A DNA stretch of 64,000 nucleotides from Candidatus Bathyarchaeia archaeon (GCA_050108135.1 JBNIDQ010000006.1:80758-144757); one strand, 5' to 3'; numbered from the stretch's first letter, positions 10,119-55,259 are shown. Numbers and translations are program-made. Notes: a model not told the origin generated them from the sequence alone.

Positions 10119-12557
10119 CTATTTGGCGGTTTTGCTTCTTCTTTTTTTCTGCACTTTCTCTGACAACGAAACAAACATGTTGCCTATGGCAAGTGCAAAA
10201 GCAGGAAAAGCTGGTAGAATGTACCAGTACAGTTTAGTTTGCGCAAAAGTGAACAGTCCAAGCACGGTACTTATCCAGATGACAAGTAACGTGTCAGGTT
10301 TTGACCGTTTAACTGCCGCGTATAGGCTTAAACTGATGGCAAAGGGCAAGGCTGCTATCCAGACAGGATTTTCGCTAGTGAACAGGTATGTTAGGTAGTA
10401 CAGGACTCCTCCGCTGTGACCTTCGATTGGGTATGTTGCACGCATGAAACCGCTGTACCCGAAGTACCACATGCCGAAAGATGAGCCAAACTGTTGCAAC
10501 ATGTAGATTATCCATGGCAGAAAAACCAGTAGCCCAACACCCAAAAACAGCAAGAACCTTTTAGAAAACAGGAACCTAACACTGCGTTTAGTAACTACCA
10601 AATAAACTATCATAATCAACGGCAACAGTAACGCTTGAATCTGCTTAGTCATAAGGGCTAAACCAAAAAATGCCCCACCAATCACTGCATACCAATTTGA
10701 CCTTTTTCCAGTTTCGCTTGCAAGAATAAAGTATATTCCGGCAGTTATGAAGAAGAGTAACATTACGTCTGTCATGGCGTGTCTGGCAAAAATGAAAAAA
10801 GTAGCGAAAGTTCCCAGAACCATGGCGGCTGCAAAACCTGTTTTTTGGCTGTAAAGTTTTTTGCCCAAATAGTAAACCATAACCATTGAGAGCGCGGCAA
10901 AGATTGGGCTGATTAGTCTTGTGGAGAAGTTGCTGAACCCAAACAGTTGATACGACAATGACATTAGCCACATGTAAAGGGGTGGTTTGGCAATCCAGAA
11001 ATTGACTTCTCCAAAACACCAAGGAACCAAATAATCTCCAGACTTGCTCATGTGAAAACCCCACTGAGAATAAGTCTGCTCGTCAGCAACCCACAAAGCC
11101 CCGTTGCCTAAATACACAAAAAATGCGACAGAAAAAGCCAGAATCATCAAAATGTAGACCAAGTCTGTGTGAGCTTTAAGCCAAGACTGCTTGCCAACTA
11201 TGTTTGGCTGATTGCTTAGGCTGCTTTGACGGTTTCTGTAAGTAACAAGCAGCAATGTTGCGATTAATCCAGCAATCACCACAAACGCAATAACGTCAAA
11301 AACGACATTATTCAAATTCAGACTAGTGTCTTGCAGAAAAGTTGTACCTGAGTTTGTTAGTGCAAAAGCGTAAATTATGAAGTCATCTGAGCCAACGTAA
11401 AGCGTATTGTTCACGATTGTTGGTGAAGATTCCACAATCCCGCCTGTTTCATACCGCCATTTCTGCTCTCCTGTGAAGGCGTCAAAACAGTAGAGGCTTT
11501 GGTCCTCCGAACCCACGTACACGTTTGAGTTGGCAACAGCGGGAGACGAAACAATCCAGTAGCCTGTTTGGGCTTGCCAAACCAAGTCGCCGTTAACTGG
11601 GTCAAGGCAGTACAAGAAGCCATTGTATGAGCCAACATAAAGGTAACCGTAGGCTATGGCTGGTGAGGATTCTACTTGGCATTGGTCACCTGTTTGGTAC
11701 TGCCAAATTATGGCGCCGTCTGTTGCGTTTAGGCAGACAACGTATCCGTCAACGGAACCAACATACACTTTATCGTTAAATATGCATGGCGAAGACCGTA
11801 TGCTGCCAGTGTGTTTATTCCAAAGTTCCTCGCCATTTGAAGCATTAACTGCGCGGACAACAAAGTCATCACAAGCAAAATACACAACATCCCCCGAAAT
11901 GGCTGGTGAAGAATAAACTTGCTTATCGGTCGGGGCAACCCAAACAATTTCGCCGCTTGTTGCGTTTAGGCAGTAAAGTCCGCTGCTTCCTGAACCAATA
12001 TAGATTCTGCCGTCAACAAGCGTTGGCGAAGACCTTACGGAGCCACCAATTAGTGTTCTCCAAATAATGTCTCCGTCCGTAATGTTTAGGGCGTAAACGT
12101 AGCCGTCATCAACACCAACATAAACCCGTTCCTTGTCAATTGCTGGGGAAGACCAAACCTCCCAACCTAAACCGGTCCTCCAAACAGGCATGCCAGTTGA
12201 AATGTTAAGACAATACACGTTTTGGTCTCTGGAACCCACAAAAAGCAGCCCATCCTCTACTGCGGGTGAAGAGTAAACCGCACGGTATGTTGGATACCTC
12301 CAGAGCAATGTTGCAGAGTCAGTGGATTCTCTGTCGCTTGCAAAAGCTGTGTGGGTTTGGTCATGGCGGAACATTACCCACTCATTATAGTCGCTGTTGA
12401 CTGGTTTGGCTGTTGCTAAACAAGTGGTTTGAACAAGTAAAACAAGCAGGATTAACGTGATTGTTAGTACTGCTTGTTTGGGTTTGTTCATTGTTATCAT
12501 TACAGGCAAGCAAATGTATAGAAAGAATATAAAACCTACCAAAAACCCGCTCATCAA
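10119..12557 (-). CDS. PQQ/BamB-like beta-propeller fused to an ArnT/PMT_2-type (GT-C) glycosyltransferase
   Basis: N-half has many SSP-x-V...VYVGS.D..vYclnA.tG..vW repeats. C-half is polytopic with DE (WVADE), KPPLY, DxxLLFF, TK and WYILP motifs. Confidence 0.85.
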   Translation of the reverse strand: MMSGFLVGFIFFLYICLPVMITMNKPKQAVLTITLILLVLLVQTTCLATAKPVNSDYNEWVMFRHDQTHTAFASDRESTDSATLLWRYPTYRAVYSSPAVEDGLLFVGSRDQNVYCLNISTGMPVWRTGLGWEVWSSPAIDKERVYVGVDDGYVYALNITDGDIIWRTLIGGSVRSSPTLVDGRIYIGSGSSGLYCLNATSGEIVWVAPTDKQVYSSPAISGDVVYFACDDFVVRAVNASNGEELWNKHTGSIRSSPCIFNDKVYVGSVDGYVVCLNATDGAIIWQYQTGDQCQVESSPAIAYGYLYVGSYNGFLYCLDPVNGDLVWQAQTGYWIVSSPAVANSNVYVGSEDQSLYCFDAFTGEQKWRYETGGIVESSPTIVNNTLYVGSDDFIIYAFALTNSGTTFLQDTSLNLNNVVFDVIAFVVIAGLIATLLLVTYRNRQSSLSNQPNIVGKQSWLKAHTDLVYILMILAFSVAFFVYLGNGALWVADEQTYSQWGFHMSKSGDYLVPWCFGEVNFWIAKPPLYMWLMSLSYQLFGFSNFSTRLISPIFAALSMVMVYYLGKKLYSQKTGFAAAMVLGTFATFFIFARHAMTDVMLLFFITAGIYFILASETGKRSNWYAVIGGAFFGLALMTKQIQALLLPLIMIVYLVVTKRSVRFLFSKRFLLFLGVGLLVFLPWIIYMLQQFGSSFGMWYFGYSGFMRATYPIEGHSGGVLYYLTYLFTSENPVWIAALPFAISLSLYAAVKRSKPDTLLVIWISTVLGLFTFAQTKLYWYILPAFPAFALAIGNMFVSLSEKVQKKRRSKTAK

Positions 12558-12615
12558 CCTATTTGGAGCCTAATAGCAGCCTATTAGAGGTTGTATGCAA
12601 AAACCTATAGGGGGT
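12553..12615 (+). repeat. Dispersed intergenic repeat, copy 1
   Basis: ATCAACCTATTTGGAGCCTAATAG...GTATGCAAAAACCTATAGGGGGT. Confidence 0.8.
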
Positions 12616-12629
12616 CTATCAATTCCATA

Positions 12630-12770
12630 AGCCGGTGTGGCTGGTGAACCTCAAAAGTAAACACAACATCAGTCATAACAATACCCTACAATGTAGAATA
12701 CTGGGTTGCTGGTTTATTTGCAATTTGCCATCAACCAATCGGTTAAACGGCTAAATTTTTTTGAAAATAA
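12630..12770 (-). repeat. Ectopic copy of the GH57 gene 5' end and upstream region (original at 49926-50068)
   Basis: 12630-12734 matches 49926-50030 with 4 mismatches in 105 bp by manual alignment. It encodes MTDVVFTFEVHQPHRL, then runs into the repeat and stops (ORF 12605-12676). Confidence 0.9.
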
Positions 12771-12863
12771 CATGAAGAATGGGATGGTGCAATTTGTGCG
12801 GATGATGTTCGTTATCGGTCTGTTTGCACCGTTCGCTAAGCGGTCTGATGAAAAAATCAAAAT

Positions 12864-13814
12864 TTAAGGTTTACGATATCTTCGGCAGTAAAATACAGTT
12901 GATGTTATTCCGATTGCTGTTACCATTGAGACGCCTGCGATTACCGGTGTGAATGAAGACGGAGTTTCCGGTTCTTGTGTGGACTTTACAATCTCGTCTT
13001 TCTCAACGTCATAAGGATACGTGAGCGGGTAGTGATCTATGTTATTCTGGTCAATAACGTATGCTGTGTCGCCAATTCCCGAATTGCCGAGTTCAGAAGC
13101 GTTAGGATACTTTACCGTATAGTTACTCCAGTAATTACCAACAGAACCATTATCCCAAAAATTAGCAGTATTGACTATAAAAGATGCTGATACATTGTTA
13201 AGCAAAATATTATTCGCGGTAAATATATTTGAACCTGACCGAGAAGCGATATACATTTCAGAAATACTGCAGTTTGAGATATGGTTTCCACCACCCCACA
13301 AGGATATTTTTTTAATGCTACTTTCTATTACAGTATTATACTCACCGTTAACTCGAAGAGCGTTTTGGGTTGTTATGTTAGTGATAAAACAGTTTGAACT
13401 GGCCAAAAAAACGCTTGTTGGATTTTCACCAATTATTTCGAGATTTTTAACGGTCACATTAGTCACTTGTAATATCTCTAAGCCAGAATTATCAAAAGCA
13501 CCTAGTGCATTTATTGTATGTCCCCCACCGTCGAATAAGATGTTACTTCGGTCAATTCTGACACTATAATTTTCTATGTCGGCGGTTAATGTGTATATGT
13601 TTTCAGTTCGGTTTATCAGGCCAAGGGCTGGAGATTCTTCATGCGAAGGAGAAACTTGGTAAATTGTTATGCTACCATCGCTTTTTATTGTTAATTCTGG
13701 CAAATATTGACGATCAAGAGGACCTGCTGTTGCCAAATTAACAAACAAGAATCCACAAGTCAGCGAAAACAATAAAACTGAAATTAGAACAATAACTAAA
13801 ACTTTTTTTGCCAA
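12864..13814 (-). CDS. NosD/CASH-type beta-helix surface protein
   Basis: Signal peptide, TIKSDGSI, ILFDGGGHT, GNYWSNY...GIGDTAY...DHYPL motifs, C-terminal TM. Confidence 0.85.
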   Translation of the reverse strand: MAKKVLVIVLISVLLFSLTCGFLFVNLATAGPLDRQYLPELTIKSDGSITIYQVSPSHEESPALGLINRTENIYTLTADIENYSVRIDRSNILFDGGGHTINALGAFDNSGLEILQVTNVTVKNLEIIGENPTSVFLASSNCFITNITTQNALRVNGEYNTVIESSIKKISLWGGGNHISNCSISEMYIASRSGSNIFTANNILLNNVSASFIVNTANFWDNGSVGNYWSNYTVKYPNASELGNSGIGDTAYVIDQNNIDHYPLTYPYDVEKDEIVKSTQEPETPSSFTPVIAGVSMVTAIGITSTVFYCRRYRKP

Positions 13815-13866
13815 GTTTCATTGCCTCTGCATTAATTGGTTTTGGGGTAAAGAGTTTATAAAAGGG

Positions 13867-13890
13867 TTTTCGTCAAAGTTTCTTGACTAA
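13867..13890 (-). promoter_or_regulatory. GTCAA-N6-TTGAC operator, copy 2
   Basis: Minus strand reads TTAGTCAAGAAACTTTGACGAAAA then CCCTTTTATAAAC (TATA). Confidence 0.75.
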
Positions 13891-14000
13891 AGCTTTTTGG
13901 CTACAGATACGCTTTTAAATCTAATAAGAGGCTGTGAGAAACTGCAATTTTAATAAAATATTTTGTTTGATGTTGATTTTGTTTGGTTGTTTTGGTGTGA

Positions 14001-14109
14001 AAATTGTTTTTGTGGTTTGTTTGGGTGTTGGGTTTTTTGTGTGGAGTGTGAACTGGTTGGCGTAGGCACTGCTTTTTCGTTGCTTTACTTTTCATATCAA
14101 CCTATTAGG
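14001..14109. repeat. Conserved non-coding flank shared with 51807-51962
   Basis: 14001-14067 vs 51807-51873 are 65/67 identical; 14079-14109 vs 51932-51962 are 31/31 identical. Confidence 0.9.
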
Positions 14110-14151
14110 CTCCAAATAGGATATCATTGCAGAAACCTATAGGGGGTAGGT
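14096..14151 (+). repeat. Dispersed intergenic repeat, copy 2
   Basis: ATCAACCTATTAGGCTCCAAATAGG...TGCAGAAACCTATAGGGGGTAGGT. Confidence 0.85.
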
Positions 14152-14232
14152 CGTATTGGCGTTTTTTCAAGCCAAAAACATGTTGAAAAATGTTTTAAGA
14201 AAAAAATGAAGGGCTAAACTGCCCAAAATGGT

Positions 14233-14568
14233 TTACTTTAGTTTGTTAAAGAAGCAACTGTACTCGCCAGTGTGGCAAGCGTTGTCTTTCTGCTCAACCA
14301 CGTACAAGAGTGTGTCGTAGTCGCAGTCAGTTGAAACTGAAACAATCTTTTGCGTGTGACCGCTGGTTTCGCCTTTTACCCAGATTTCGTTTCGGCTGCG
14401 GCTCCAGTAGGTGGCTTTGCCGGTTTTGAGGGTTAGGTCAAGTGCTTCTTTGTTGGCGTATGCCAGCATCAAAACAGTTTTAGTGGTTACGTCTTGAACT
14501 ACGACTGGGATTAAGCCGTTGCCTTTAGCGAAGTCAAGTTTAGAGAGTAATTCTTCAGGTGTTGTCAT
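14233..14568 (-). CDS. hisI: Phosphoribosyl-AMP cyclohydrolase (monofunctional)
   Basis: YWSRSR...[15 protein letters not shown] and ACHTG..SCF motifs. Confidence 0.95.
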
Positions 14569-15368
14569 TGTCTTATTGTCACCCCCGCTTTACGAAGATA
14601 ATCCTTCACCATTGGGACAGGATACTTGTTATAGTGAAATACTGAAGCAGCCAACGCCGCATCCGCTTTGCCCGAAGTGAAGACGTCAACGAAGTGTTGA
14701 GGGACTCCAGCGCCTCCGCTCGCGATGACTGGAACGTGGACGCGTTCAGAGATAGCTCGGGTAAGTTCGATGTCGAAGCCGCTTTCTGTGCCGTCTTTGT
14801 CCATTGAGGTGACGAGGAATTCGCCTGCACCCAACTTTTCTGCTTGGAGTGCCCATGCTACTGCGTCGATGCCTGTTGGTTTTCTGCCGCCGTAAGTGTT
14901 AACTTCAAACCACACTGGTCCTTCACTTGTCTGCACCGTGATTTTTCCTTCAGCTGGGGTACGGTTGCGTTTAGCGTCAATAGCTACAACAACGCATTGT
15001 TGACCAAAAACGTCAGCCAACTCCGTGAGCACTTTGGGGTTTTCAACGGCTGCAGTGTTGACGGATACTTTGTCGGCTCCGCTGCATAGGACGTTTCTTG
15101 CGTCTGCCACGTTGCGGATTCCACCGCCTACAGTGAATGGTATGCTGATGGCTTTAGCGACGCCTTCCACGTATTGCCGCATGATGTCGCGTTTTTCGTG
15201 TGAAGCGGTGATGTCGAGAAAGACGAGTTCGTCGGCGCCTTCGTCGCTGTAACGTTTTGCCAATTCCACTGGGTCGCCTGCGTGTTTTAGTTCGAGAAAG
15301 TTGATGCCTTTGACTACTTTTCCGTGGTCAACATCAAGGCATGGAACGATACGTTTTGCAAGTGGCAC
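14565..15368 (-). CDS. hisF: Imidazole glycerol phosphate synthase, cyclase subunit
   Basis: [29 protein letters not shown] and ALAASVFH motifs. Confidence 0.97.
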
Positions 15369-15372
15369 AGTT

Positions 15373-16095
15373 TTAGACCCCTATTTTTTGTATAGCTTCT
15401 TTTAGTGTAAATCGGCCTTCATAAAGCGCTTTCCCGATAACTGCGCCTTCTACCCCGATTTTTTTAAGGTTCGCAAGGTCATCTATGCTGCCTATTCCGC
15501 CTGCCGCCAAAATTTTGACGCCTGAACATTTCACTGCTTCAGCAAGGGTTTCAAGGTCTGGACCACTAAGCAAACCGTCGTGAGTAATTGAGGTTATCAA
15601 GAATCTTTGAACGCCCAATTCAATGAATTTTTCCAGAGCGTCCTGTAGAGTCATGTCTGTTGCTGTTCGCCAACCATCAATCATAACCCAGCCGTTCTTG
15701 TTGTCGAGGGCGACGACGACTGATTCTTTGCCGAACTTGTCCTGTAATCGGGTAATTACTGAGAAGTCTTTGAATGCTAATGAGCCAAGCATGACTTGGG
15801 TTATGCCTGTGTTGAAGAGTTTTTCTGCGATTTCGAAGCTGCGTATGCCTCCGCCGACTTGGATGGGTAGGTTGATGTTTTTGGCAATTTCAGTTATGAC
15901 TGGGTGATTGTTGCCTTTGCCGAAAGCGGCGTCGAGGTCGATGATGTGAAGTTTGCCTGCGCCTTCGTCACGCCAACGTTTCGCCGTTTCTACTGGTCCA
16001 CCGTATTGTTCATAGATTTTGGCGGTTTTTGCTTCTCCCTGTGTTAAACGCACGATTTTGCTGTTCATTAAATCTATTGCTGGAATTAACTGCAT
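15373..16095 (-). CDS. hisA: ProFAR isomerase
   Basis: [28 protein letters not shown] and GKALYEG motifs. Confidence 0.96.
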
Positions 16096-16101
16096 CTTAG
16101 G

Positions 16102-16707
16102 TTACCTCGTTACTATTTTGGCGAAGTTGCGTAGAATCTGCAAGCCTACGTCGCCTGATTTTTCTGGGTGAAACTGTGTGCCATACACGTTTTTGCCTGC
16201 CACTGCAGACGCGAAAGTGGTGCCATAAGTGGTTTTAGTACACACTATACTTTCGTCAGTTGGAGCTGGAAACAGTGAGTGCACAAAGTAAACAAACGTG
16301 TCTTCTTTTATGCCGTCGAATAACTCGCAGGACTTGGTCATGTTGATTGTGTTCCATCCCATATGGGGAATCTTTAAGTCACCTTGCAAGCGGACGATTT
16401 TGCCTTTAAAGAAGCCTAAACCTGCTCCGGGGCCTTCTTCGCTTTCTTCAAAGAACAACTGCAGCCCAAGGCAAATGCCCAGTAGCGGTGTGCCTTCTAC
16501 GACTTTGTTTTGGATGGTTTCTTTTACGCACTCAAGTTTTTGTGCTGCAGGGGTAAAGCTGCCTACTCCGGGGAGCGCGACGGCGTCAGCTTTCTCTAAA
16601 TCCGCAGAGGTTGTTCCGATGGAAACCTCTAATCCTGCTTTTTCCAATGCGCATTTGAGGCTTAGTAAGTTGCCTACGCCGTAGTCGAAGATTACTGCTT
16701 TTGCCAT
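16102..16707 (-). CDS. hisH: Imidazole glycerol phosphate synthase, glutaminase subunit
   Basis: DYGVGN, LPGVG, GICLGLQ and QFHPEKS motifs. Confidence 0.97.
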   Translation of the reverse strand: MAKAVIFDYGVGNLLSLKCALEKAGLEVSIGTTSADLEKADAVALPGVGSFTPAAQKLECVKETIQNKVVEGTPLLGICLGLQLFFEESEEGPGAGLGFFKGKIVRLQGDLKIPHMGWNTINMTKSCELFDGIKEDTFVYFVHSLFPAPTDESIVCTKTTYGTTFASAVAGKNVYGTQFHPEKSGDVGLQILRNFAKIVTR

Positions 16708-16708
16708 T

Positions 16709-17284
16709 TTAGATTACTCCTTTAGAGCTGGGTACGCCTTTGCGTCTTGGGTCAACCGCGACAGCTTGACGTAATGATAGGGCTAGCGCTTTGGTTGCGG
16801 CTTCTGCTTTGTGGTGGTCGTTGCTGCCGTACATTACAAACATGTGCACGTTAGCTTGCAGTGAGTTGGTTAGGGACTCGTAGAAGTGGTTGATGTCTTC
16901 GGTTTGCATTTCTTCTACTTTTCTGCCCTTGAATTTGAGGTCAATCTTGAAGTATGGACGCTTAACCAAGTCGACGGCGGCAAATGCGAGTGAGCAATCC
17001 ATGGGGGCAGCGGCGTTGCCGAAACGTGTTATGCCTACTCGAGTGCCCAGAGCCTTGTTTAGGGCTTCGCCTAAGCCGATGGCTAAGTCTTCTACGCAGT
17101 GGTGTACAAGGTCACCTTTTACAGACGCTTCAATATCGATTAGGCTGTGTGTGGCAAGGCTTGTTAACATGTGGTCAAGGAACGGCACGCCTGAATCGAT
17201 GGCTGCTTTGCCTTCGCCGTCAAGGTTAACTTTTGCTTTTACTTCGGTTTCTTTGGTTTTACGGTAAACTTCTTCAACGCGCAC
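16709..17284 (-). CDS. hisB: Imidazoleglycerol-phosphate dehydratase
   Basis: R.TKET, FLDHML, HH.VED and NDHHKAEA metal-binding motifs. Confidence 0.96.
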   Translation of the reverse strand: MRVEEVYRKTKETEVKAKVNLDGEGKAAIDSGVPFLDHMLTSLATHSLIDIEASVKGDLVHHCVEDLAIGLGEALNKALGTRVGITRFGNAAAPMDCSLAFAAVDLVKRPYFKIDLKFKGRKVEEMQTEDINHFYESLTNSLQANVHMFVMYGSNDHHKAEAATKALALSLRQAVAVDPRRKGVPSSKGVI

Positions 17285-17286
17285 GT

Positions 17287-22637: not shown

Positions 22638-22643
22638 AAAACT

Positions 22644-22868: not shown

Positions 22869-22875
22869 AAAGCAG

Positions 22876-23675: not shown

Positions 23676-23754
23676 AGCGGGGTGGGGTAGCCAGGATTAA
23701 CCCGCTGGGCTCATAACCCAGAGATCGATAGTTCAAATCTATTCCCCGCTACCA
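23676..23754 (+). tRNA. Initiator tRNA-Met(CAT), CCA encoded
   Basis: A1-U72 pair (AGCGGGG/CCCCGCT), anticodon stem CTGGG/CCCAG with three consecutive G-C pairs around CTCATAA, TTCAAAT T-loop. Confidence 0.95.
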
Positions 23755-27379: not shown

Positions 27380-27673
27380 CTAGCAAATAGTTAGGTAACA
27401 AAGAGCAAACGCTCCCCTTTTAAGATTCCCTATGACGTTTTACATTTTTAGAGAACATGATATTTCTCTTACGTTACAGCCAAAAGGTGACGTTGAAAAA
27501 ACACGTACTCATGTTTTTAGAAATATTGACTTTTTGTTGGTTTGGAAAATAACCCTTAACACCTCGCAGTTATCTCCATAAGCTACCTAAATGTTTAAGT
27601 TAAAGCAACTTCTTAAAGACCAAGTTAATTCGTCGCTATTTTTGTAGCTTAAAATTAACAGGAACAAAAAGTT

Positions 27674-27898
27674 ATGTCTGATAAAGTTTCAACCCAAATA
27701 AAATGTAGTGACTGCGGAAAAACAGCCACCGTTAATTTTAAGCCCTCCCCAGATAGACCAGTTTATTGTCGTGACTGTTTACCTAAGCACAGAAACTCAG
27801 CTCCAAGAACCGACTCGGGCAATCGAATGCAAACAAGACGTGCGAGTTCTGACAGTGGCGATCAAGCATGGTCTAGACGCCGTGAAAGTTGGAAATAA
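27674..27898 (+). CDS. CxxC-x17-CxxC zinc-ribbon protein
   Basis: CSDCG...VNFKP..DRPVYCRDC motif with an Arg-rich tail. Confidence 0.85.
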   Translation: MSDKVSTQIKCSDCGKTATVNFKPSPDRPVYCRDCLPKHRNSAPRTDSGNRMQTRRASSDSGDQAWSRRRESWK

Positions 27899-28101
27899 CC
27901 TAGCACACGTTTGAAACCCTCTTTTTCAAATAGATGAGTGCCAGTTTCGGTCAGTGCGGCAAACGCTTTGAAGCAATTAGTTGCTAAGTCTGTTTGGAAA
28001 ATGAGTGGTGAGAATAGTTCTTTTGAAATAAATATTGATGAGTTTTGTTTATTGTGTTTCTTTTTTGCTAAAAGTTATATTCAGAACGTGCTTAATTATC
28101 G

Positions 28102-28308
28102 ATGGGTGGTTTGTTGAGTGAAGTTGAACTAGTGAAGATTAGTGTTAAACGTAAAAAGGGCAAGATTTTTTATGAAATTAATTGTGCCAAGGAAGTTACG
28201 GGTGAAGAGTTGGCGCATTATTTGGATGGAATAATTGAAGGTATCTGTAATTGGAAACCTGAGGTTTGCCAGGAAGCTGAGAAATCAGTAAGCGGTACAA
28301 TAAACTAA
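28102..28308 (+). CDS. Small hypothetical protein
   Basis: 68-aa ORF preceded by a TATA-like TTATAT; no family recognised. Confidence 0.45.
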   Translation: MGGLLSEVELVKISVKRKKGKIFYEINCAKEVTGEELAHYLDGIIEGICNWKPEVCQEAEKSVSGTIN

Positions 28309-28328
28309 AAACATCTAAAAATAACCCG

Positions 28329-28380
28329 CCTATTTGGCGCCTATTAGAAATAGTATGCAGAAACCTATAGGGGGGTAGGT
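28329..28380 (+). repeat. Dispersed intergenic repeat, copy 3
   Basis: CCTATTTGGCGCCTATTAGAAATAGTATGCAGAAACCTATAGGGGGGTAGGT. Confidence 0.85.
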
Positions 28381-33887: not shown

Positions 33888-33930
33888 AAACCTAAGTATC
33901 CCTTAAGGGGGTAGGTGCTATTGGCTAAAA
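33888..33930 (+). repeat. Partial or interrupted copy of the dispersed repeat
   Basis: AAACCTA[AGTATCCCTTA]AGGGGGTAGGTGCTATTGGCTAAAA; the right half matches 52031-52059. Confidence 0.6.
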
Positions 33931-34010
33931 ATCACGCCAAAAACGGGCTGAACAACATTTAGGCTAAAAAAGAAAGAGAAGGGGAAACTGGTTAATTTGT
34001 GAACGTTACC

Positions 34011-35539: not shown

Positions 35540-35542
35540 TAG

Positions 35543-43918: not shown

Positions 43919-43948
43919 TTTCCTCCACATTTTTAGAAAAATAAAGGG

Positions 43949-47484: not shown

Positions 47485-47485
47485 G

Positions 47486-48100
47486 TTATGCGCCTCCTAC
47501 AGCATGATATGTTTTAAGAACGCTTTTCATCCACTTTTCAGGCTCAGTTGAGATAACACTGATTTTTTCTTTAGGCACATTATATATGCGGACGATTTCT
47601 TCTTTCATCCATTCCGATTTTACGTTGATACAGTTTGACTCGTAGCAGCCCAGCCACTCGATGCTTTTTATTGCCATGTTGTATGGCGAGTTTGAGGAAA
47701 GCGAGCGGTGGTCTTCTAAGCTTTCTACTGAGTAAACAAAGGGTATTCCAAGACCGTTTTTAAGGGCAACAGCGGCTGGAACAAAATGCCAATCAAACAC
47801 GTCTATTAAGTCAATTTTCTTTTTTGAATCATAATAAATGTTAGCGGCGGCTCGTTCTACTTCTTGATTGAGCGTTAGAACCCATGTTAGGACGCCGATG
47901 TGGGTTTTAACTGGGTTGGACACGCGGAAAGCCTTTACGCCTGAAGCTTCCAGAGTTTGACCTGTTAAATAATCGTGATATGTTACAACGTTTGTGTCGA
48001 TTTTGTTTTTTACAAGATTTGTAGATAGCGCGCTAACGTATTCAGCAAGTTTCCCTACAACCCTAGGCGGATACTCCCAAGAAAACAGTATTACGCGCAT
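47486..48100 (-). CDS. Stand-alone GT4 N-terminal domain protein
   Basis: WEYPP.VVG and DVFDW (HDW-like) motifs; paralogous to the N-half of the neighbour; no C-terminal donor-binding domain. Confidence 0.8.
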   Translation of the reverse strand: MRVILFSWEYPPRVVGKLAEYVSALSTNLVKNKIDTNVVTYHDYLTGQTLEASGVKAFRVSNPVKTHIGVLTWVLTLNQEVERAAANIYYDSKKKIDLIDVFDWHFVPAAVALKNGLGIPFVYSVESLEDHRSLSSNSPYNMAIKSIEWLGCYESNCINVKSEWMKEEIVRIYNVPKEKISVISTEPEKWMKSVLKTYHAVGGA

Positions 48101-48112
48101 GGTTTGGTCACT

Positions 48113-48364
48113 TTATGTAAAGAGTGAGCAGACTTTGATTATTCCTCTTCCGTTTAGGTAATAGCGTTTTTTGCCTTCGTTGTCAACAAAGCTTTCCGCG
48201 AAACCTTCAGACTTGTACTTGTCAAGGATGCTTTCAATCTCGTTAGGGTCTTTCTGCAGGATTCTTGCGACTTCGTCACTGCGCCTTGAAAGGTCAGCTG
48301 CGGTTGCACACAAGTTGTGGAGAGTCTGCAGAACCTTGTCTGGGAATGGAAGTTCTTCTCTCAT
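48113..48364 (-). CDS. Small winged-helix-like hypothetical protein
   Basis: 83 aa with the pattern ...EVARIL...EIESILDKY..EG......YYL...G. Confidence 0.6.
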   Translation of the reverse strand: MREELPFPDKVLQTLHNLCATAADLSRRSDEVARILQKDPNEIESILDKYKSEGFAESFVDNEGKKRYYLNGRGIIKVCSLFT

Positions 48365-48424
48365 AACGTGACCTCAAATTCACTTAAAATAAGGAAAAGG
48401 GGTTCTTATAAACACATGCGCGTG

Positions 48425-49972
48425 TTAGAATTGCCTGGTAGCTTCCTGAGCTTTGTCTGAAAGAGTTTTGTAACGGCTCTTTGCAGCAGCAACAAGTGCG
48501 CGTCTTAGGGTTTCTTTCTTTTTCTTTGAAGCAGCGGTTTCACGGATTTTTGCGGCTAACTCTTCATCTTTAAGGGAATATTTAATCCAGTTCTCAAAAT
48601 CGCCAGTGCCCACGTGATACTCAAGGGCTTCCGCATCCACTGTTTGAACGGCTTTAATGAATCCGTACAGGCTCCAAGCCATAACCCCTGTGTAGTATTC
48701 TTTGCCTGTGCCCGTGTAGAAAAGGAACGGTTCATTAGCAGTTAAAATCGCACCTCGCAGGCGTGATTCAAAATCGTTAAGCAGTGTTTGAGCAACCGCG
48801 AAAGCATCCATCGGCGACTCGTAAGGGCTAAAGTATGAATGAACTTCGCCTGGTCCTCCGCCTGCAGTGAACATGTAATATAGGTGGTCGCTTGTTTGGA
48901 AGTCTCGCCAAAGCCGCAGCCATTCAGGGTCTTCTGACTCTTTCGCTAAAGGTTCCAGTCGCCGCAGTGAAGTGTAATATGCCCACTGCATAACGTTGCC
49001 AAGCCAACCTGTCGAGTCACGTGCAACATCCGCCCAAGACACAGTAAATTCGGTTTCGGGAACATCAATCTCTCCTGCTGAAGCATGCCGGTCAACCGCC
49101 TCGCTTGGCGTAACCATTTTCAGGTTGTCGTATTCAAGCAGTTTTTCAGGCATGTGCCGCAAGAAATTGTGGATTCCCGTTTCTGGCCAATGGTGCTCCC
49201 CGAAAGTTTCGTAGTCGGGGAAGATGTTGATGACTTCGCCTTTTGTGCCTGCAAGCCAACTGGCGTATTTTTCGGAGGTTAAGGGCCAATCAGGCCACCA
49301 GCGTGCGCTGAAACGGAAACCAATATCGTCTGTTAATTTGTAGTTGCGAAGCAGCGTTCGGATTTTTTTGCAGCCTTTTGGCGTGTACAGGAAGTTGGGA
49401 GATTTTCCGCCGAGAATTTTTTCTACGCCTTCAGTGTAAATGCCCTTGTAACCCATTTCTTCAACGGTTTTGGCGATGGTGTTGTTGTAGAGCAATTCAG
49501 TGTTTTCAAAAACGCTTGGAGTATAGCCGAGTAGGTCTTGGATTAGTTGGCGGTGCATTTTTACTTGTTCAATGAATTCGGTTTTGTCAGGGTAAAGGCT
49601 GGCGATTGAGTGGTAATAGGTTTGGTCAAGAAACTCTACTTTGCCTGTTTTTGCAAGCTGCTTAAAGGTTTCAAGTAGGTCCTTGTCGAACATTTCGCAT
49701 TGTTCCAAAAACACGCCAGAGAGGCTGAAGGCAACTTTGACTGGTTTGCGTTCGTGACTGTGTCGGTCGATGAGGTCAAGCAGGATTTGGTTTGAAGGGA
49801 AATAGCATTTGCGGGCGGCACGCTTGAAAATTTCCCGGTCACCCTCGTTATCGAAGTAGTAATCGAAAAGTTCTTTTTTGGTTAAGCGTTTGAAGATTTT
49901 GCCTTCCCAAAACAAGCTTCGTCGTAGCCGATGCGGCTGGTGAACCTCAAAAGTAAACACGACATCAGTCAT
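48425..49972 (-). CDS. GH57 alpha-amylase-like glycoside hydrolase with a C-terminal DUF5752-like domain
   Basis: FEVHQP, TYYHS, ENTEL (nucleophile), DYETFGEH, SWAD and QTSDHLYYM motifs; C-terminal YHVGTGDFENWI. Confidence 0.92.
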   Translation of the reverse strand: MTDVVFTFEVHQPHRLRRSLFWEGKIFKRLTKKELFDYYFDNEGDREIFKRAARKCYFPSNQILLDLIDRHSHERKPVKVAFSLSGVFLEQCEMFDKDLLETFKQLAKTGKVEFLDQTYYHSIASLYPDKTEFIEQVKMHRQLIQDLLGYTPSVFENTELLYNNTIAKTVEEMGYKGIYTEGVEKILGGKSPNFLYTPKGCKKIRTLLRNYKLTDDIGFRFSARWWPDWPLTSEKYASWLAGTKGEVINIFPDYETFGEHHWPETGIHNFLRHMPEKLLEYDNLKMVTPSEAVDRHASAGEIDVPETEFTVSWADVARDSTGWLGNVMQWAYYTSLRRLEPLAKESEDPEWLRLWRDFQTSDHLYYMFTAGGGPGEVHSYFSPYESPMDAFAVAQTLLNDFESRLRGAILTANEPFLFYTGTGKEYYTGVMAWSLYGFIKAVQTVDAEALEYHVGTGDFENWIKYSLKDEELAAKIRETAASKKKKETLRRALVAAAKSRYKTLSDKAQEATRQF

Positions 49973-50085
49973 AACAATACCCTACAATGTAGAATACTGG
50001 GTTGCTGGTTTATTTGTAATTTGCCATCAAACAAACAAAGTTAACAGACTAAAATTCTTTGAAAATAAAAAAAGAAGAGGGCTGG

Positions 50086-50414
50086 TTATATCCAGTAGTG
50101 CGCAACAATGTTTGTGTTTGAATTTATCAGTCTACTATCACCGTTCCCTAAACCATCACTAAAATAGGAAAGCACCCAATAATCAAAAGGTGTCTGCACC
50201 GACACAGTATGATACCCAGCAGTCACACTAACAGGCCAAGACGCAGAATACGGAACACCATCAATATAAACCGTAGGACCCAACCACTGGTAAGAGTAAT
50301 CATCATACGCTGAAACAGTCAACGTATAAGAAGGCGGCGGCTGAGTCTGAATAGTTACACTTTTTGGACTTGATGAAAAAGGATTAATGAAAAGAGTTTA
50401 GACTTAAATTTCAT
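50086..50414 (-). pseudogene. Probable remnant of a secreted protein (frameshift or deletion)
   Basis: ATG at 50414 gives MKFKSKLFSLILF out of frame with a downstream PPPSYTLTVSAY...HYWI beta domain. The frames meet at a T5 run (50376-50380). Confidence 0.45.
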
Positions 50415-50522
50415 TACATAACTCACCAAAGCCAATCCTAATCTGTCATGAGTCATAATAGGCAGTATATATAATTTTGCAGATTCAGCCCTAAAAGATG
50501 GAAATTTAAGCAGAATAACTGC

Positions 50523-51578
50523 TCAATTTTTACAAAACTTTTTCAAAATAAAAAAAACGCTAAATAAACCAATTATAACACATAGCGATACAGCAATTAT
50601 GAGAAAACTGTTAAATTGATCAAAAAAGCCCGCATTATTGTTTTCAGGTATCAAGTACTTTGAGGGTTCAAAAGCAACATCATTTTTTTGTGAAAGAGGT
50701 GCTTGGTCAATCCCGCTGGCAGCATCTGCCGAATTATTGACAATATCTTTCCAAAGGTTGCTCCAAAAATTATTGATCACTGTGTTGTTTTCACTCCAAG
50801 CAAGCTCTGGGTCTCCGGAATACATAAGCCCTACTTGATTATCAATGAAGTTGTTGTTGAAAAATCGATTATTACAATTGTGACTTAAAAGGTCAACCGC
50901 AGCACCGCTACTGTTTTGGAAGTTGTTAAACAATACTTGAGAATTATTTAAGCTATAAAATCGGCCGCCGTTACAATAATTATTTGAAAAATTATTGTAG
51001 GCAAGCAAAAGATTGACAGAATCCCTCATAGTTAAGGCTGTGTCAAAATTATCGTTAAGTTGGTTTCCGATGATAAGGCAATCGATATTTCTGTAGGCCG
51101 TAATTGCTTGGAGGCCGCCAGCTAAATTGCAACTCATCACTTGAATGTTTGAACAGTTAACAAAACTAATTGCAACAAAAAAATGGCAAGCCGTGACATT
51201 TGTAATTATTATGTTGCTGGCGTTTGTTATTTGTATCAATGGCGCCGCTGTGAATTCAGGTTTCCAGTAACTAACACTTACGCTGGATGGCAAGGACATA
51301 GTGAACCCGCGTCCATCAAACACTATATCGTTTTTCTGAATTTCAAGGCTATAATTGAGGATATTTCCAGTCAAAAAAAATGTGTTGCCTGACCGCTGAA
51401 TTGGTAATGTTGACGGGCAAATTTCACCGTTACTTTTGATATAACCTTTTTCTGTTGGAACTATCTGAGGAATTATTGCGTTTGCATTTACCACAACAAT
51501 TGATTGAAAACAAATTGTACTAACCAAAAAAACACAGGATAAAAATAGCACAACTTTGTAAGTTTTCAATTTAATCAT
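50523..51578 (-). CDS. NosD/CASH-type beta-helix surface protein
   Basis: Signal peptide, YIKSNGEI..IQRSGN, IVFDGRGFT, Asn ladders, NNFWS and DQAPL motifs, C-terminal TM. Confidence 0.85.
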   Translation of the reverse strand: MIKLKTYKVVLFLSCVFLVSTICFQSIVVVNANAIIPQIVPTEKGYIKSNGEICPSTLPIQRSGNTFFLTGNILNYSLEIQKNDIVFDGRGFTMSLPSSVSVSYWKPEFTAAPLIQITNASNIIITNVTACHFFVAISFVNCSNIQVMSCNLAGGLQAITAYRNIDCLIIGNQLNDNFDTALTMRDSVNLLLAYNNFSNNYCNGGRFYSLNNSQVLFNNFQNSSGAAVDLLSHNCNNRFFNNNFIDNQVGLMYSGDPELAWSENNTVINNFWSNLWKDIVNNSADAASGIDQAPLSQKNDVAFEPSKYLIPENNNAGFFDQFNSFLIIAVSLCVIIGLFSVFFILKKFCKN

Positions 51579-51619
51579 AGCTAACCCTGTTGATTCTGGG
51601 ATATTTTATTTATTAAATT

Positions 51620-51643
51620 TTTTCGTCAAATTTTCTTGACTAA
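51620..51643 (-). promoter_or_regulatory. GTCAA-N6-TTGAC operator, copy 3
   Basis: Minus strand reads TTAGTCAAGAAAATTTGACGAAAA then AATTTAATAAAT (TATA-like). Confidence 0.75.
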
Positions 51644-51948
51644 CAGTTTTTCGACACGAAATAAAAAAGCAGCATTAACAAACATTAATTGTCCATATTC
51701 AAACCAGTAAAGGGCGTATACACATAACTATTGAGAAAATGCCAATTTTTGCCCAACAGTTCACAACAGCAAAAAACTACTTTAATAAGGGTATTTTTGA
51801 AGACTAAAATTGTTTTTATGGTTTGTTTGGGTGTTTGGTTTTTTGTGTGGAGTGTGAACTGGTTGGCGTAGGCTTTGTTTGAAGGGGTCATGCTAGTGCC
51901 CAACTGCATTGCGCTTTTCATTTGCTGTTCTGTTGCTTTACTTTTCAT

Positions 51949-52004
51949 ATCAACCTATTAGGATGCTATTAGCAGTTGTATGCAGAAACCTATAGGGGGT
52001 AGGT
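51949..52004 (+). repeat. Dispersed intergenic repeat, copy 4
   Basis: ATCAACCTATTAGGATGCTATTAGCAGTTGTATGCAGAAACCTATAGGGGGTAGGT. Confidence 0.85.
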
Positions 52005-52030
52005 TAAAATGACGCTTTTTCGAAAAACAC

Positions 52031-52059
52031 TAAGGGGGGTAGGTGCTAATGGTTGAAAA
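52031..52059 (+). repeat. Partial copy of the dispersed repeat
   Basis: TAAGGGGGGTAGGTGCTAATGGTTGAAAA, matching 33904-33930. Confidence 0.6.
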
Positions 52060-52194
52060 CAAGCGCATTAGCATGTTGAAAACCGGTAGTTTGACGCGTT
52101 TGGCGGGTTTTGTTGGTGGAATGTTTTTAGAAAAAGTTATTAGCGTAGCGTAACATTAGGCTTTCAACACCATTAATCTTTGGAAGGTTAAGTT

Positions 52195-53280
52195 ATGCCT
52201 GAAATTCGTGTAGCACTTATCGGCGTGGGCAACAGCGCTTGCGCATTGATTCAGGGAACCCAGTATTACAAGAACGCTAAAGACGGCGAAACAGTTCCCG
52301 GCCTGATGCATGTTAACTTTGGCGGATACCACATACGTGACATCAAGTTTGTAGCCGCTTTTGAAGTAAACAAAGACAAAATCGGAAAAGACCTCTCAGA
52401 AGCAATTTGGATGAAACCAAACTGCTGTGAAAAGTTCAGCGACGTTCCCAACTTGGGCGTTAAAATTTCTCCAGGCATCATCTTTGACGGTGTTGCCCCA
52501 CACATGCGTGAAACCTTCAACGTTTACGACGACAGCAACACCACAAAAGAAAGCGTCGTCCAAACCTTAAAAGACGCAAAAGCAGAAGTCCTCGTCAACT
52601 ACCTCCCAGTAGGCAGCCACGACGCAGTACGCTTCTACGCCCAATGCGCAATCGACGCAGGATGCGCTTTCGTAAACTGCATGCCAGAATTCATCGGCAG
52701 TGATGCTTCAGGTGAATGGCCCAAAAAATTCGAAAAAGCCGGCTTACCAGTCCTTGGTGACGACATTAAAAGCCAAGTTGGCGCAACCATTCTCCACCGT
52801 ACACTCGTAAAACTTTGCCTTGACCGCGGAGCAATCGTAGACGAAACATACCAGCTTAACCTAGGCGGAGACACAGACTTCCAAAACATGACCATCGAAA
52901 ACCGGCTAAAATCAAAACGTATAAGCAAAACCGAAGCAGTCACAAGCTTGGTACCATACGATCTGCCGACAAGAATCGGTCCCAGCGACTTCGTACATTT
53001 CCTTGGTAACAAAAAAATCTGTTACCTGTCAATCAAAACACGCGCTTTTGGCGACCGTCCAATAACTATCAGCGCAAAACTGGAAGTTGAAGACTCACCA
53101 AACAGCGGCGGAGTCGTCATTGACCTTATCAGGGCAGCCAAAATTGCGTTGGACCGCAAAATCTCTGGCGCACTACTTAGTATGCCTTCGTACGCGTTTA
53201 AGCATCCACCAGTTCAAGTTCCAGACAGCCAAGCACGTCAGGATACAGAAGACTGGATTGCCGGTAAACGCGAACGGTAA
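52195..53280 (+). CDS. ino1: myo-Inositol-1-phosphate synthase
   Basis: IGVGNSACAL.QG, NYLPVGS, GDDIKSQVGAT, QLNLGGDTDF, SKTEAV and EDSPNSGG motifs. Confidence 0.95.
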   Translation: MPEIRVALIGVGNSACALIQGTQYYKNAKDGETVPGLMHVNFGGYHIRDIKFVAAFEVNKDKIGKDLSEAIWMKPNCCEKFSDVPNLGVKISPGIIFDGVAPHMRETFNVYDDSNTTKESVVQTLKDAKAEVLVNYLPVGSHDAVRFYAQCAIDAGCAFVNCMPEFIGSDASGEWPKKFEKAGLPVLGDDIKSQVGATILHRTLVKLCLDRGAIVDETYQLNLGGDTDFQNMTIENRLKSKRISKTEAVTSLVPYDLPTRIGPSDFVHFLGNKKICYLSIKTRAFGDRPITISAKLEVEDSPNSGGVVIDLIRAAKIALDRKISGALLSMPSYAFKHPPVQVPDSQARQDTEDWIAGKRER

Positions 53281-53376
53281 AATTTTTTTTTCTTTTCTTT
53301 TTTGTTAACACTTTTAAGCAGGAAAGCTTAGATTTTAGCTTAACTTAATTATTATATCGTTAGAAGGTTTAGTTAC

Positions 53377-53793
53377 ATGGTTAAAGTTGAAGGATACGAT
53401 GTTCCTGAAGGATTGTATTATTCGAAAGATTTTGCATGGTTAAAAGTTGAAGATGATAAAATCCGTGTCGGAATCACTGATTACGCTCAAAAAGCTTTAC
53501 GTGAAATAGTTTACGCAGAATTGCCTGACGCAGACACTGAAGTTAAACAGAACGAGCCGTACGGAACTCTTGAATCCGTCAAAGCAGTATCTGACCTGGT
53601 TGCTCCAGCAAGTGGAGTTATCGTGGAAGTTAACGAGGAAGTCCTCTCAAAACCTGAAACATTAAACGAGGATCCATACGGCAAAGCATGGTTGCTCATC
53701 ATAAAACCATCTGACCTGCAAGCAGAACTCGCAAACCTGATGAACTTCAACCAAGCAGTTGAATGGCACAAAGCTCAAGCCCAAGGAAAATAA
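53377..53793 (+). CDS. gcvH: Glycine cleavage system H protein (lipoyl carrier)
   Basis: VGITDYAQ, ESVKAVSD (lipoyl-Lys) and NEDPYG..W motifs. Confidence 0.93.
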   Translation: MVKVEGYDVPEGLYYSKDFAWLKVEDDKIRVGITDYAQKALREIVYAELPDADTEVKQNEPYGTLESVKAVSDLVAPASGVIVEVNEEVLSKPETLNEDPYGKAWLLIIKPSDLQAELANLMNFNQAVEWHKAQAQGK

Positions 53794-53812
53794 ACGCTGA
53801 AGGCAACGGGAA

Positions 53813-55159
53813 ATGCCAAACAAAATAGTTATCATCGGCGCAAACGCAGCTGGAGTTGACGCAGCTTCTGCAGCAAGAAAAAAAGACCGAACTGCAGAAA
53901 TCACTTTAATCACAAAAGAAAAAACTGCCGGTTACTCCCGATGCGGCTTGCCCTTTGTTATCGGAGGGGCAATTCCCCAATTCAAAGACCTCATAGTTTA
54001 TCCTCCAGCATATTTTCAAATGCTTAAACTAAACCTACGCACCCAAACAACCGCCACATTCATCAACACCAAAGAAAAAACCGTCACAACACAAACCCCA
54101 GAAGGCACAACCGAAACCGTACCTTACGACCGCCTAATAATTTCAACAGGCGCAGACCCCTTTATGCCGCCAATTAAAGGCAAAGAAAAACCCGGCATCC
54201 TAACCCTGCGCGACATTGAAGATGGCGAAAAAATTGATGCTGCCATTAAAGCGGGCGCGAAATCAGCTATTATTATGGGTGCGGGCTTAATCGGCTTGGA
54301 ACTTGGCGTTGCTCTCATAGAGCGTGGATTACAGGTGACTGTTGTTGAAATGTTGCCGCAGATTTTGCCTCAAATGCTTGACAAGGACATGGCAAAACTT
54401 GTTCAGGAGCACCTAGAGCAGAAAGGCATGAAAATCCTGCTAAACAAAATCGTCGAAGAAATTCTTGGCGAAGACAAAGTCACGGCAATACGGGCAAGCG
54501 GTGAAACCTTGACGGCAGACATGTTTGTTAGCGCTTTTGGAGTTCGGGCTAACACGAAGCTTGCATTTGACTCGGGCATACCTTTAGGGGAAACACGCGC
54601 AATTAAAACTAACTCGCAAATGGAAACGGATATAAAAGATGTTTATGCAGTTGGCGACTGCGCCGAAACCACGCACATTTTAACTCACAGACCTATTTGT
54701 CCTCAACTTGGAACCGTCGCGGTACGGGAAGGCAAAGTTGCAGGCACAAACGCTGGCGGAGCCAGCTCCCAATTCACAGGCGTTCTGGTTTCAGTAATTA
54801 CAATGCTCTTTGATATCCAAGCAGGCGCAACAGGCATAAGCGAAACAGCCGCAGCAAAAAACAACATAGACGTAGTAGTAGGAACAATCAGCAGCAAAAC
54901 CAAAGCAGACTATTACCCCACAGCAAAACCCATCAAAGTAAAATTAATCGTGGAAAAAGAGTCCGAACACATCATCGGCGCCCAAATCGTTGGCGGAGAA
55001 GAAGTAACCCAACGCATCAATGCATTATCTTTTGCGATTCAGAAGCAGATGACTGTGAGAGAGCTTGCTAAAGCAGATACGGCGTATGCGCCGCCAATGT
55101 GTGAAACTTGGGAGCCAATGGTTTTAGCTGCAGAAATGGTTTTAATGAAACTACGCTAA
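53813..55159 (+). CDS. FAD-dependent NAD(P)H oxidase / CoA-disulfide reductase family flavoprotein
   Basis: IIGANAAG, single redox Cys in YSRCGLP, GAGLIGLE, YAVGDC and DTAYAPP motifs. Confidence 0.88.
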   Translation: MPNKIVIIGANAAGVDAASAARKKDRTAEITLITKEKTAGYSRCGLPFVIGGAIPQFKDLIVYPPAYFQMLKLNLRTQTTATFINTKEKTVTTQTPEGTTETVPYDRLIISTGADPFMPPIKGKEKPGILTLRDIEDGEKIDAAIKAGAKSAIIMGAGLIGLELGVALIERGLQVTVVEMLPQILPQMLDKDMAKLVQEHLEQKGMKILLNKIVEEILGEDKVTAIRASGETLTADMFVSAFGVRANTKLAFDSGIPLGETRAIKTNSQMETDIKDVYAVGDCAETTHILTHRPICPQLGTVAVREGKVAGTNAGGASSQFTGVLVSVITMLFDIQAGATGISETAAAKNNIDVVVGTISSKTKADYYPTAKPIKVKLIVEKESEHIIGAQIVGGEEVTQRINALSFAIQKQMTVRELAKADTAYAPPMCETWEPMVLAAEMVLMKLR

Positions 55160-55206
55160 ACCTCTGCTTCCTTTTCAGCTTTTTTGGCCTGAAAAAGGGT
55201 TTTTCT

Positions 55207-55259
55207 ACCTGCCCCCTATAGGTTTCTGTATACTATTTCTAATAGGCTCCAAAAGGTTG
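55207..55259 (-). repeat. Dispersed intergenic repeat, copy 5 (inverted)
   Basis: Reverse complement reads CAACCTTTTGGAGCCTATTAGAAATAGTATACAGAAACCTATAGGGGGCAGGT. Confidence 0.85.

Follow-up and report, generated by a model that had tools for sequence, protein, structure and literature searches.

A dispersed, modular family of intergenic repeats in a Candidatus Bathyarchaeia genome: anatomy, coincidence with gene-order breaks and likeness to bacterial mosaic repeats

What kind of sequence recurs between the genes of an archaeal chromosome, in both orientations, and what might it do there? The question is raised by a stretch of 64,000 nucleotides (nt) from the genome of a Candidatus Bathyarchaeia archaeon (GCA_050108135.1 JBNIDQ010000006.1:80758-144757; hereafter the window), a member of a group of abundant, uncultured archaea of anoxic soils and sediments. 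A first-pass annotation of the window had described a dispersed repeat of about 55 bp and offered three options for it, namely the end of a non-autonomous element, a recombination site or a binding site for a nucleoid protein. The source genome comprises 2.68 Mb in 24 contigs (designated by C and a number, the window being C6:80758-144757), and the repeat proves to belong to a family of 139 modular elements, which coincide with breaks in gene order and serve as the target of an insertion sequence (IS). According to the interpretation preferred here, which is given about an even chance of being correct, the elements are the archaeal counterpart of the bacterial mosaic repeats BIME/REP (bacterial interspersed mosaic elements and repetitive extragenic palindromes) and ERIC (enterobacterial repetitive intergenic consensus), spread and homogenised by recombination and acting as hot spots of rearrangement.

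The elements were called with nhmmer profiles of two modules, left (L) and right (R), run across the genome. The L profile has 113 matches, of the form CCAACCTATTWGG-NN-CCWAATAG...TATGCAGAAACCTATAGGGGGTAGG, and the R profile 103, of the form CTAAGGGGGGTAGGTGCTAWTGG...CAWWAGYATGTTGAAAA. The resulting elements include 77 with both modules (L+R), 36 with L only and 26 with R only, and they are dispersed in both orientations at a density of about one per 19 kb. A 17-mer taken from the core finds 79 genome-wide matches at up to three mismatches; in the window, the core GCAGAAACCTATAGGGGGTAGG has four matches at the same tolerance versus none in 100 shuffles. The further genome-wide copies on which the first-pass annotation had made its case depend are thus present in number, about 139 elements in 2.68 Mb.

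In alignments, the L module (about 58 nt) consists of a T-run, ACCAACCTATTWGG-NN-CCWAATAG, a variable hexamer that occurs in discrete variants, and TATGCAGAAACCTATAGGGGGTAGG. The R module, also of about 58 nt, runs from CACTAAGGGGGGTAGGTGCTAWTGG through a variable centre to CAWWAGYATGTTGAAAAMCAGTA, and similarity between its copies stops about 10 nt past ATGTTGAAAA. Common to both modules is the G-box, ACCTA-TAGGGGG(G)-TAGGT, on which 38 of the L+R elements are fused, while the remaining 39 carry two G-boxes that lie 5-59 nt apart; the spacer modules fall into three recurring types, and a left extension, GCTTTAYTTTTCATA, occurs in about 25 copies. Two cores are quasi-palindromic, the L palindrome CCTATTWGG-NN-CCWAATAGG and the G-box itself (ACCTA-TAGGGGG-TAGGT), and short half-sites (CCTATTWGG, CTATTGG, CCATTAG) are repeated within modules in both orientations. 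The central 8-mer of the L palindrome exists in two mirror states, TGGNNCCT in 98 copies and AGGNNCCA in 42. Relatives of this genome were compared through 8-kb loci picked for carrying an element (designated by L and three digits); the sister species 'Thermoproteota archaeon ADS1' (ADS1) is about 92% identical and the remaining species 68-86%. Tandem arrays occur in other species, with (L-G)x3-R in L094 and LR followed by L-G-spacer-G-R in L114.

Within the window, the five full copies and both right-half copies of the first-pass annotation are all present, with the described layout at each of them. Resolved into modules, they read as follows:

12554..12616, plus strand: copy 1, an L module by nhmmer profile, ending directly after the GGGGGT of the G-box
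12617..12770, plus strand: foreign DNA, joined to the G-box of copy 1
14072..14190, plus strand: copy 2, a fused L+R with the left extension GCTTTACTTTTCATAT, L at 14096-14151, the shared G-box at about 14136-14152 and R reaching to 14190
28324..28380, plus strand: copy 3, an L module alone, the ADS1 orthologue of which is a fused L+R
33900..33944, plus strand: an R module alone (G-box and R arm), in the same orientation as copy 3 and 5.5 kb downstream of it
51949..52084, plus strand: copy 4, a spaced element with L and G-box 1 at 51949-52004 and G-box 2 and R at 52030-52084
55207..55261, minus strand: copy 5, an L module that sits between convergent genes

Copy 4 has a 25-nt spacer module at 52005-52029 and a left extension from about 51925, and copy 5 is trailed by a degenerate R-like tail (about 55160-55206). 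The family first described is therefore real, its unit being larger than 55 bp and modular (L, R and spacers); likewise, the TTTTTCA(A/G)GCCAAAAA noted downstream of some copies exists but forms part of the R module itself. A possible left-half copy at 6223-6255 lies below the profile threshold and represents a degenerate G-run at most. Three copies had also been thought to supply a Shine-Dalgarno (SD)-like sequence and an ATG heading an open reading frame (ORF). This holds only for copy 1, the left end of which overlaps the ATG (12554) of a minus-strand gene for an 811-amino-acid (aa) protein (10119-12554) in which, according to Pfam, a PMT/ArnT-like membrane glycosyltransferase domain is combined with a beta-propeller of the BamB/PQQ type. 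At copies 2 and 4, the 'MKSKAT...' frames fall within the left extension of the repeat. A small-protein gene family was considered and rejected: the frames end after 7-8 codons in most of the roughly 20 genome-wide copies, so that the ATG at copies 2 and 4 is regarded as part of the left extension, and the 87-aa 'MKSKAT' ORF has no Pfam match. The 'MKSKAT' ORFs are repeat sequence and not genes. Since the host is an archaeon, arguments from bacterial promoters do not apply, and those from SD sequences need care.

Comparison with relatives links the elements to changes in gene order. Against the close relative ADS1, breaks affect 10 of 13 alignment junctions carrying an element versus 1 of 8 without (Fisher p=0.0075), and against the distant species 38 of 54 element junctions versus 50 of 124 without (odds ratio 3.5, p=3e-4), counts to which misassembly of metagenome-assembled genomes (MAGs) at repeats might add apparent breaks. 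The elements are the places of breaks, insertions and deletions relative to ADS1, most of which map to the G-box or the L palindrome centre. Where this genome has the fused L-G-R at C11 39331-39437, ADS1 has L-G, a secreted-protein gene, a second L-G, a paralogous gene and G-R, a difference of 1.84 kb with G-boxes at its bounds. At L049 the spacer measures 265 nt here versus 25 nt in ADS1, and on C14 an L has been replaced by 1.64 kb and a spacer module. Similarity stops at the G-box in L001 and L050, as it does at window copy 3 (L013 6726-7570, equivalent to window 27539-28380), and in L083, L041 and L072 the switches lie at the L palindrome centre or within its left arm. Copy 1 offers a junction of another kind: window 12630-12770 is a 90%-identical copy of 49926-50068, the 5' end of a GH57 gene with its upstream region, 37 kb away. 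The same junction, GGGGGT followed directly by CTATCAATTCC, is found at three genome sites (window copy 1, C3:9469 and C4:28344), with 100% identity over 114 bp at the latter two. The description of the copies as borders of accessory genes is supported. Among the options offered at the outset, the recombination site fits best, given that gene-order breaks and indels relative to ADS1 coincide with elements and that several junctions lie exactly at the G-box.

Several observations concern the DNA at these borders. The portion of the GH57 gene duplicated and fused to the G-box of copy 1 comprises its first 16 codons and upstream region. Window 12864-14162 and C4:32064-33382 form a paralogous cassette (79% nucleotide identity) that contains the gene of a 316-aa secreted beta-helix-like protein and its upstream repeat, and window 50523-51578 holds a related gene that matches NosD/beta-helix in Pfam. 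The variable DNA beside repeats often holds surface-protein genes with a C-terminal tail made up of PEF and a transmembrane segment.

Junctions at a fixed point could also be the work of a dedicated enzyme. A site-specific (tyrosine) recombination system would then use the elements as its att-like sites; the G-box would be the core, L and R would be arms with accessory binding sites, and recombination at the G-box would insert, excise and exchange segments such as surface-protein cassettes and proviruses, leaving L-G...G-R pairs, solo sites and fused sites. As a sequence, the G-box of L, R and fused forms alike may be read as an overlap of 7-8 bp with an inverted half-site on either side. Inserts always lie between two G-boxes, whether as spacers of 5-59 nt or at sizes up to 267 nt and 1.84 kb, the latter being the fused site that faces the two-gene arrangement of ADS1; foreign DNA is joined exactly past GGGGGT at window copy 1 and two other sites. 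However, deletion between directly repeated G-boxes accounts for the fused forms equally well, and it can also explain the 1.84-kb case on C11 and three spacer or arm replacements. Spacers of 25-50 nt are too small as circular substrates, and other breakpoints lie away from the G-box, at the L palindrome centre or in the L left arm.

The arrangement of solo modules bears on the same question. A solo L and a solo R stand in proper order in 11 of 21 neighbouring pairs versus an expected 25%, which speaks for the att-like reading, and eight properly ordered solo L...R pairs span 0.27-6.6 kb. Yet the DNA between L...R pairs holds single-copy housekeeping genes, namely GAPDH and PGK, SMC-ScpAB and DNA ligase; in the window, GAPDH, PGK and four other genes lie between copy 3 and the R module at 33900..33944. 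Because these genes intervene, solo L and R are not the two ends of a mobile cargo element, and a cargo-carrying transposon ended by L and R is rejected. The cassette array of an integron is absent as well, the elements being dispersed in both orientations with no integrase-adjacent array.

A candidate enzyme for such a system exists in the genome, where 3-4 paralogues make up a small family of 476-aa tyrosine recombinases with mutual identities of 64-70%:

8633..10114, plus strand: truncated tyrosine-recombinase paralogue, with the recombinase gene at 8633-9400 (Pfam Phage_integrase, E=1.5e-5, below the curated cut-off)
C9:1317-2747, and C1:12556-13356 with C2:7-450: other tyrosine-recombinase copies, near contig ends

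Residues 227-472 of the 476-aa protein align by tblastn at window 8639-9394. The earlier statement that the window lacks a transposase is corrected accordingly by this truncated recombinase gene, for which no linkage to the repeats was found. One recombinase copy has an L+R element 220 nt downstream. The proposed check for co-occurrence with a recombinase gave no linkage: tblastn with the 476-aa protein found no homologue in the 859 kb made up by 115 element-bearing loci of other species, so that an association of the family with the multi-copy tyrosine recombinase is rejected, and no recombinase gene lies beside an element array. This absence (0 of 115 loci) counts against the att-like reading.

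Viral DNA provides evidence on both sides. In the viral contig L117 (IMG/VR), a fused LR has a host gene for an M50 peptidase on one side and phage tail genes on the other, as might be expected of an attachment site at the border of a provirus, but in the related contigs L116 and L119, also from IMG/VR, the element is internal and not terminal, situated between a holin-like ORF and the terminase genes (terS side); one of these contigs has L-G and the other G-R. The present genome matches L119 at C9 230909-236434 with 100% identity. The surrounding region, C9 at about 195-236 kb, is provirus-like, with a large-terminase gene at C9:232564-233991, tail genes at C9:195852-202573 that are 69% identical to those of L117, and a solo R between a holin-like ORF and a small-terminase-like ORF. 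As a whole, att-like sites of a tyrosine recombinase are regarded as an unlikely account. A broader form, in which the G-box, and perhaps also the L palindrome centre, would be the crossover point of a dedicated site-specific system with about 140 dispersed L-G-R docking sites per genome that shuffles surface-protein cassettes and proviruses, is considered quite doubtful. If true, a recombinase site at the G-box would represent a new kind of dispersed cassette-exchange system in archaea, a genome-wide analogue of the integron.

Further evidence for BIME-like repeats comes from a multi-copy IS of the IS5 family (Pfam DDE_Tnp_1 and DUF772; about 1.0-1.25 kb), which is located at contig ends, outside the window:

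C19:150153-151399 and C3:383-1408: IS5-family copies
C18:148409/C19:499, C17:74779 and C20:422: IS5-family copies or ends

All eight recognisable ends of this IS abut CCTATTWGGATCC, where the L palindrome has its centre; wherever both sides are visible, GGATCC is apparently duplicated at the target, and at one insertion site (L019) ADS1 has an uninterrupted element. The IS thus shows a strict target choice for the repeat. The L right halves on the two sides of one of its copies differ, suggesting an inversion mediated by the IS.

Abundant small intergenic sequences in a genome with multi-copy IS5-family transposase genes may suggest classical MITEs (miniature transposable elements with inverted repeats), that is, internally deleted copies of a DDE-transposase IS that are moved in trans by cut-and-paste. 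High copy number and small size would agree with this. Terminal inverted repeats (TIRs) are nevertheless absent, the L consensus scoring 14 against the reverse complement of the R consensus, compared with a shuffled mean of 15.6 (p=0.76). The proposed check for target-site duplications (TSDs) around the copies found none in the 77 L+R elements, in which the longest word shared by the flanks averages 5.34, versus 5.31 +/- 0.10 for permuted flanks. The only multi-copy IS found, that of the IS5 family, has ends (GARGGGTGTGCA...) unrelated to those of L and R, and inserts into the L palindrome. The MITE reading is largely refuted and thought highly improbable, and the non-autonomous element end of the first-pass annotation, in the classical transposon or MITE sense, is not supported.

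Equally remote is the reading that the elements encode, or are parts of, small structured RNAs of one non-coding family, or RNA leaders that regulate in cis. The elements are short, conserved and intergenic, they have local hairpins, and spacers such as GGTAGGCTCTACC look hairpin-like. Against this, RNAalifold returns no consensus structure and an energy of 0 for 151 R and 188 L sequences, pairing frequencies in both palindromes equal the expectation from column composition under independence, and the W positions that flank the L palindrome centre pair less than expected (0.20 vs 0.45). The elements also occur in both orientations relative to neighbouring genes. Rfam 15 recognises only two tRNAs in the window at the gathering threshold, and 51880-52140, the region of copy 4, has no match at E<=1. 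The window's tRNA-Arg(GCG) at 5617-5695 and tRNA-Met(CAT) at 23676-23754 do not adjoin any repeat copy.

The distribution of the family across lineages addresses how its copies arise and persist. A scan of one genome per prokaryotic species with the exact 22-mer core gives at least 115 loci in about 20 assemblies or species, and these are all Candidatus Bathyarchaeota/Bathyarchaeia MAGs or ADS1 among the matches listed; the exact 22-mer was otherwise found in two viral contigs, and the core occurs in the viral contigs L116, L117 and L119. Phage and plasmid collections gave no match to the repeat. No comparable family was found in the literature on Bathyarchaeia repeats, the paper on the first complete Bathy-6 genome making no mention of one. 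Many elements are shared in place with ADS1, and eleven sites occupied here are occupied also in species at 68-83% identity. Four species carry an element at the site C18 36002-36134, each of them composed of different modules and with flanks that cannot be aligned. Conversely, this genome lacks an element at eight collinear orthologous intergenic sites; a search for clean empty sites with TSDs in species at about 70% identity met intergenic DNA that does not align. Orthologous elements of this genome and ADS1 are 0.84-0.92 identical versus 0.92-0.98 for their flanks, and they carry different hexamer variants. The sequence that follows the G-box is moreover a dialect particular to each lineage: this genome and ADS1 share TGCTAT/TGCTAA, fen_992 and OY968763 have TCGGTA/TCACTA, and CAZJBY and JAFGNM have TCCGTA, and the dialects are distinct between lineages even at orthologous sites. 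The divergence of orthologues together with the lineage dialects is concerted evolution, in which copies are overwritten from other copies, or replaced.

Persistence at one site may also reflect a function in the host. The elements would then be cis-acting host DNA under selection, either an array of sites for a protein that organises chromatin or the chromosome, or else an insulator or a transcription stop that works in both directions, and the rearrangements would be a side effect. The core is exactly conserved across about 20 species, the same intergenic site is kept in up to four of them while its flanks have become unalignable, and half-sites are repeated without base-pair covariation, all of which would suit selected host DNA. 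The CCTATTWGG-type half-sites and the lack of covariation are compatible, too, with the nucleoid-protein site of the first-pass annotation. Gene context is partly in accord with a transcription stop. On the crude, ORF-based gene map used here (2,607 ORFs, 87% of the genome), 136 of the 139 elements are intergenic. A converging gene has its stop codon 3-50 nt from the R end in 31 of 48 cases, and for the L end a stop codon is 7-44 nt away in 15 of 34; R ends that face a gene start do so mostly at 70-115 nt. Outward-facing consensus T-runs, present at the left extremity (TTTTTTACC) and on the other strand within R (TTGTTTTTC), could stop transcription.

A fixed promoter or terminator as the sole role is ruled out, since every gene context occurs: 48 L+R elements are in tandem settings (31 in one orientation, 17 in the other), 17 in convergent and 11 in divergent ones. 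The expectation that the copies do not occupy a fixed position relative to genes is borne out here. The 11 L+R elements between divergent gene starts also argue against a host cis-element in general, as do the eight orthologous sites that are empty here. The greater divergence of orthologous copies than of their flanks, relative to ADS1, points the same way; a dialect common to all copies of a lineage is more readily explained by copying than by selection acting separately at over 100 sites, and tandem arrays and truncated copies are unexpected for a tuned regulatory site. The resemblance of GAAAC...GGGGGT to an archaeal origin-recognition box is loose, the TTCC/GAA core motifs being absent. 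The Pyrococcus ORB1 oligonucleotide (PMC1904270) has only GAAAC...GGGGGT in common with the repeat, and the search found no canonical cluster of origin-recognition boxes, so that this identity was rejected. A selected host element is on balance judged improbable.

The preferred reading, that of recombining mosaic repeats, may be put forward as a mechanism on the strength of the observed family size, anatomy, breakpoint enrichment and IS targeting, with protein binding, the mode of recombination and any benefit to the host as its conjectural parts. A sequence-specific DNA-binding protein would recognise the modules. Recombination of copies with one another, and not cut-and-paste transposition, would propagate the elements and keep those of one lineage alike; the routes envisaged are gene conversion, unequal exchange, and deletions or insertions at the G-box that the modules share. 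As the comparisons show, the elements are preferred breakpoints for inversions and translocations and points of gain and loss for accessory genes, often surface-protein genes, and they are the specific target of the IS5-family IS.

Certain points weigh against this mechanism. Exchange at the G-box involves about 15-17 identical bases between non-homologous arms, which is short for ordinary homologous recombination and more in keeping with a dedicated recombinase. The apparent gene-order breaks could be inflated by MAG misassembly at repeats. One intergenic site may keep its element in up to four species, at 68-80% identity, with flanks that cannot be aligned, and this could equally be the mark of a selected host function. 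Finally, the analysis identified no trans-acting protein for the elements, and no gene resembling those of REP-associated tyrosine transposases (RAYTs) was seen in a check for genes flanked by inverted elements within 4 kb, where only the IS itself appeared, no family-based search of the genome having been made. Taken together, the interpretation offered by the first-pass annotation is partly supported.

A family of about 140 elements provides a handle on genome rearrangement and accessory-gene exchange in Bathyarchaeia. It is also a warning for those who build MAGs, as contigs break or are mis-joined at these repeats. The lineage dialects may in turn be employed as a sequence tag by which DNA of Bathyarchaeia and of their viruses can be recognised in metagenomes.

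Comparison with known systems places the family among several kinds of small repeats and sites. Correia elements of Neisseria and prokaryotic MITEs are, like the elements described here, small, abundant, intergenic and shared between related species; they can affect neighbouring genes and genome order, and they carry TIRs and target duplications (PMC10969869). Both of these hallmarks were tested in the present family, and neither was found.

Lambda-type att sites and the attI/attC sites of integrons are substrates of tyrosine recombinases and exist as one or few sites. The putative half-sites of the G-box, inverted round a 7-8-bp asymmetric centre, together with arms that bear repeated motifs, recall attP/attB and attI/attC as far as sequence goes, and inserted DNA bounded by two G-boxes, as well as the viral contig at a host/provirus border, adds to the likeness. 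The present elements differ in their roughly 140 dispersed copies, in having no adjacent recombinase gene and no cassette array, and in the housekeeping genes enclosed between L and R.

ERIC sequences, also called intergenic repeat units (IRUs), of Enterobacteriaceae and Vibrio resemble the present family as intergenic repeats of about 100-130 bp that are strikingly conserved across genera and occupy different sites in different species. An ERIC is one long imperfect palindrome and is thought to act as RNA. The elements described here show no overall palindrome or covariation, and the sequences are unrelated; as in ERIC/IRU, long and short forms arise via indels at fixed internal points.

Like the present elements, bacterial BIME/REP are the specific target of particular insertion sequences and are sites of chromosomal rearrangement. 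They differ from the present family in being GC-rich stem-loop palindromes, whereas the palindromes of the archaeal elements are AT-rich with a G-run core and no alifold structure. Their REP units alternate in orientation and their hosts are bacteria; here there is no such alternation, the host is an archaeon, and the L and R modules are non-palindromic and polar. In BIME/REP, a RAYT gene (HUH Y1) is flanked by copies, while none was seen here by the element-flanking check (within 4 kb). In other respects the two families are much alike: both have more than 100 extragenic copies, which are mosaics of a few modules and linkers and form tandem arrays (for enterobacteria and pseudomonads, see PMC2817692 for background). 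Both frequently lie just past gene ends, and both possess a lineage-specific consensus.

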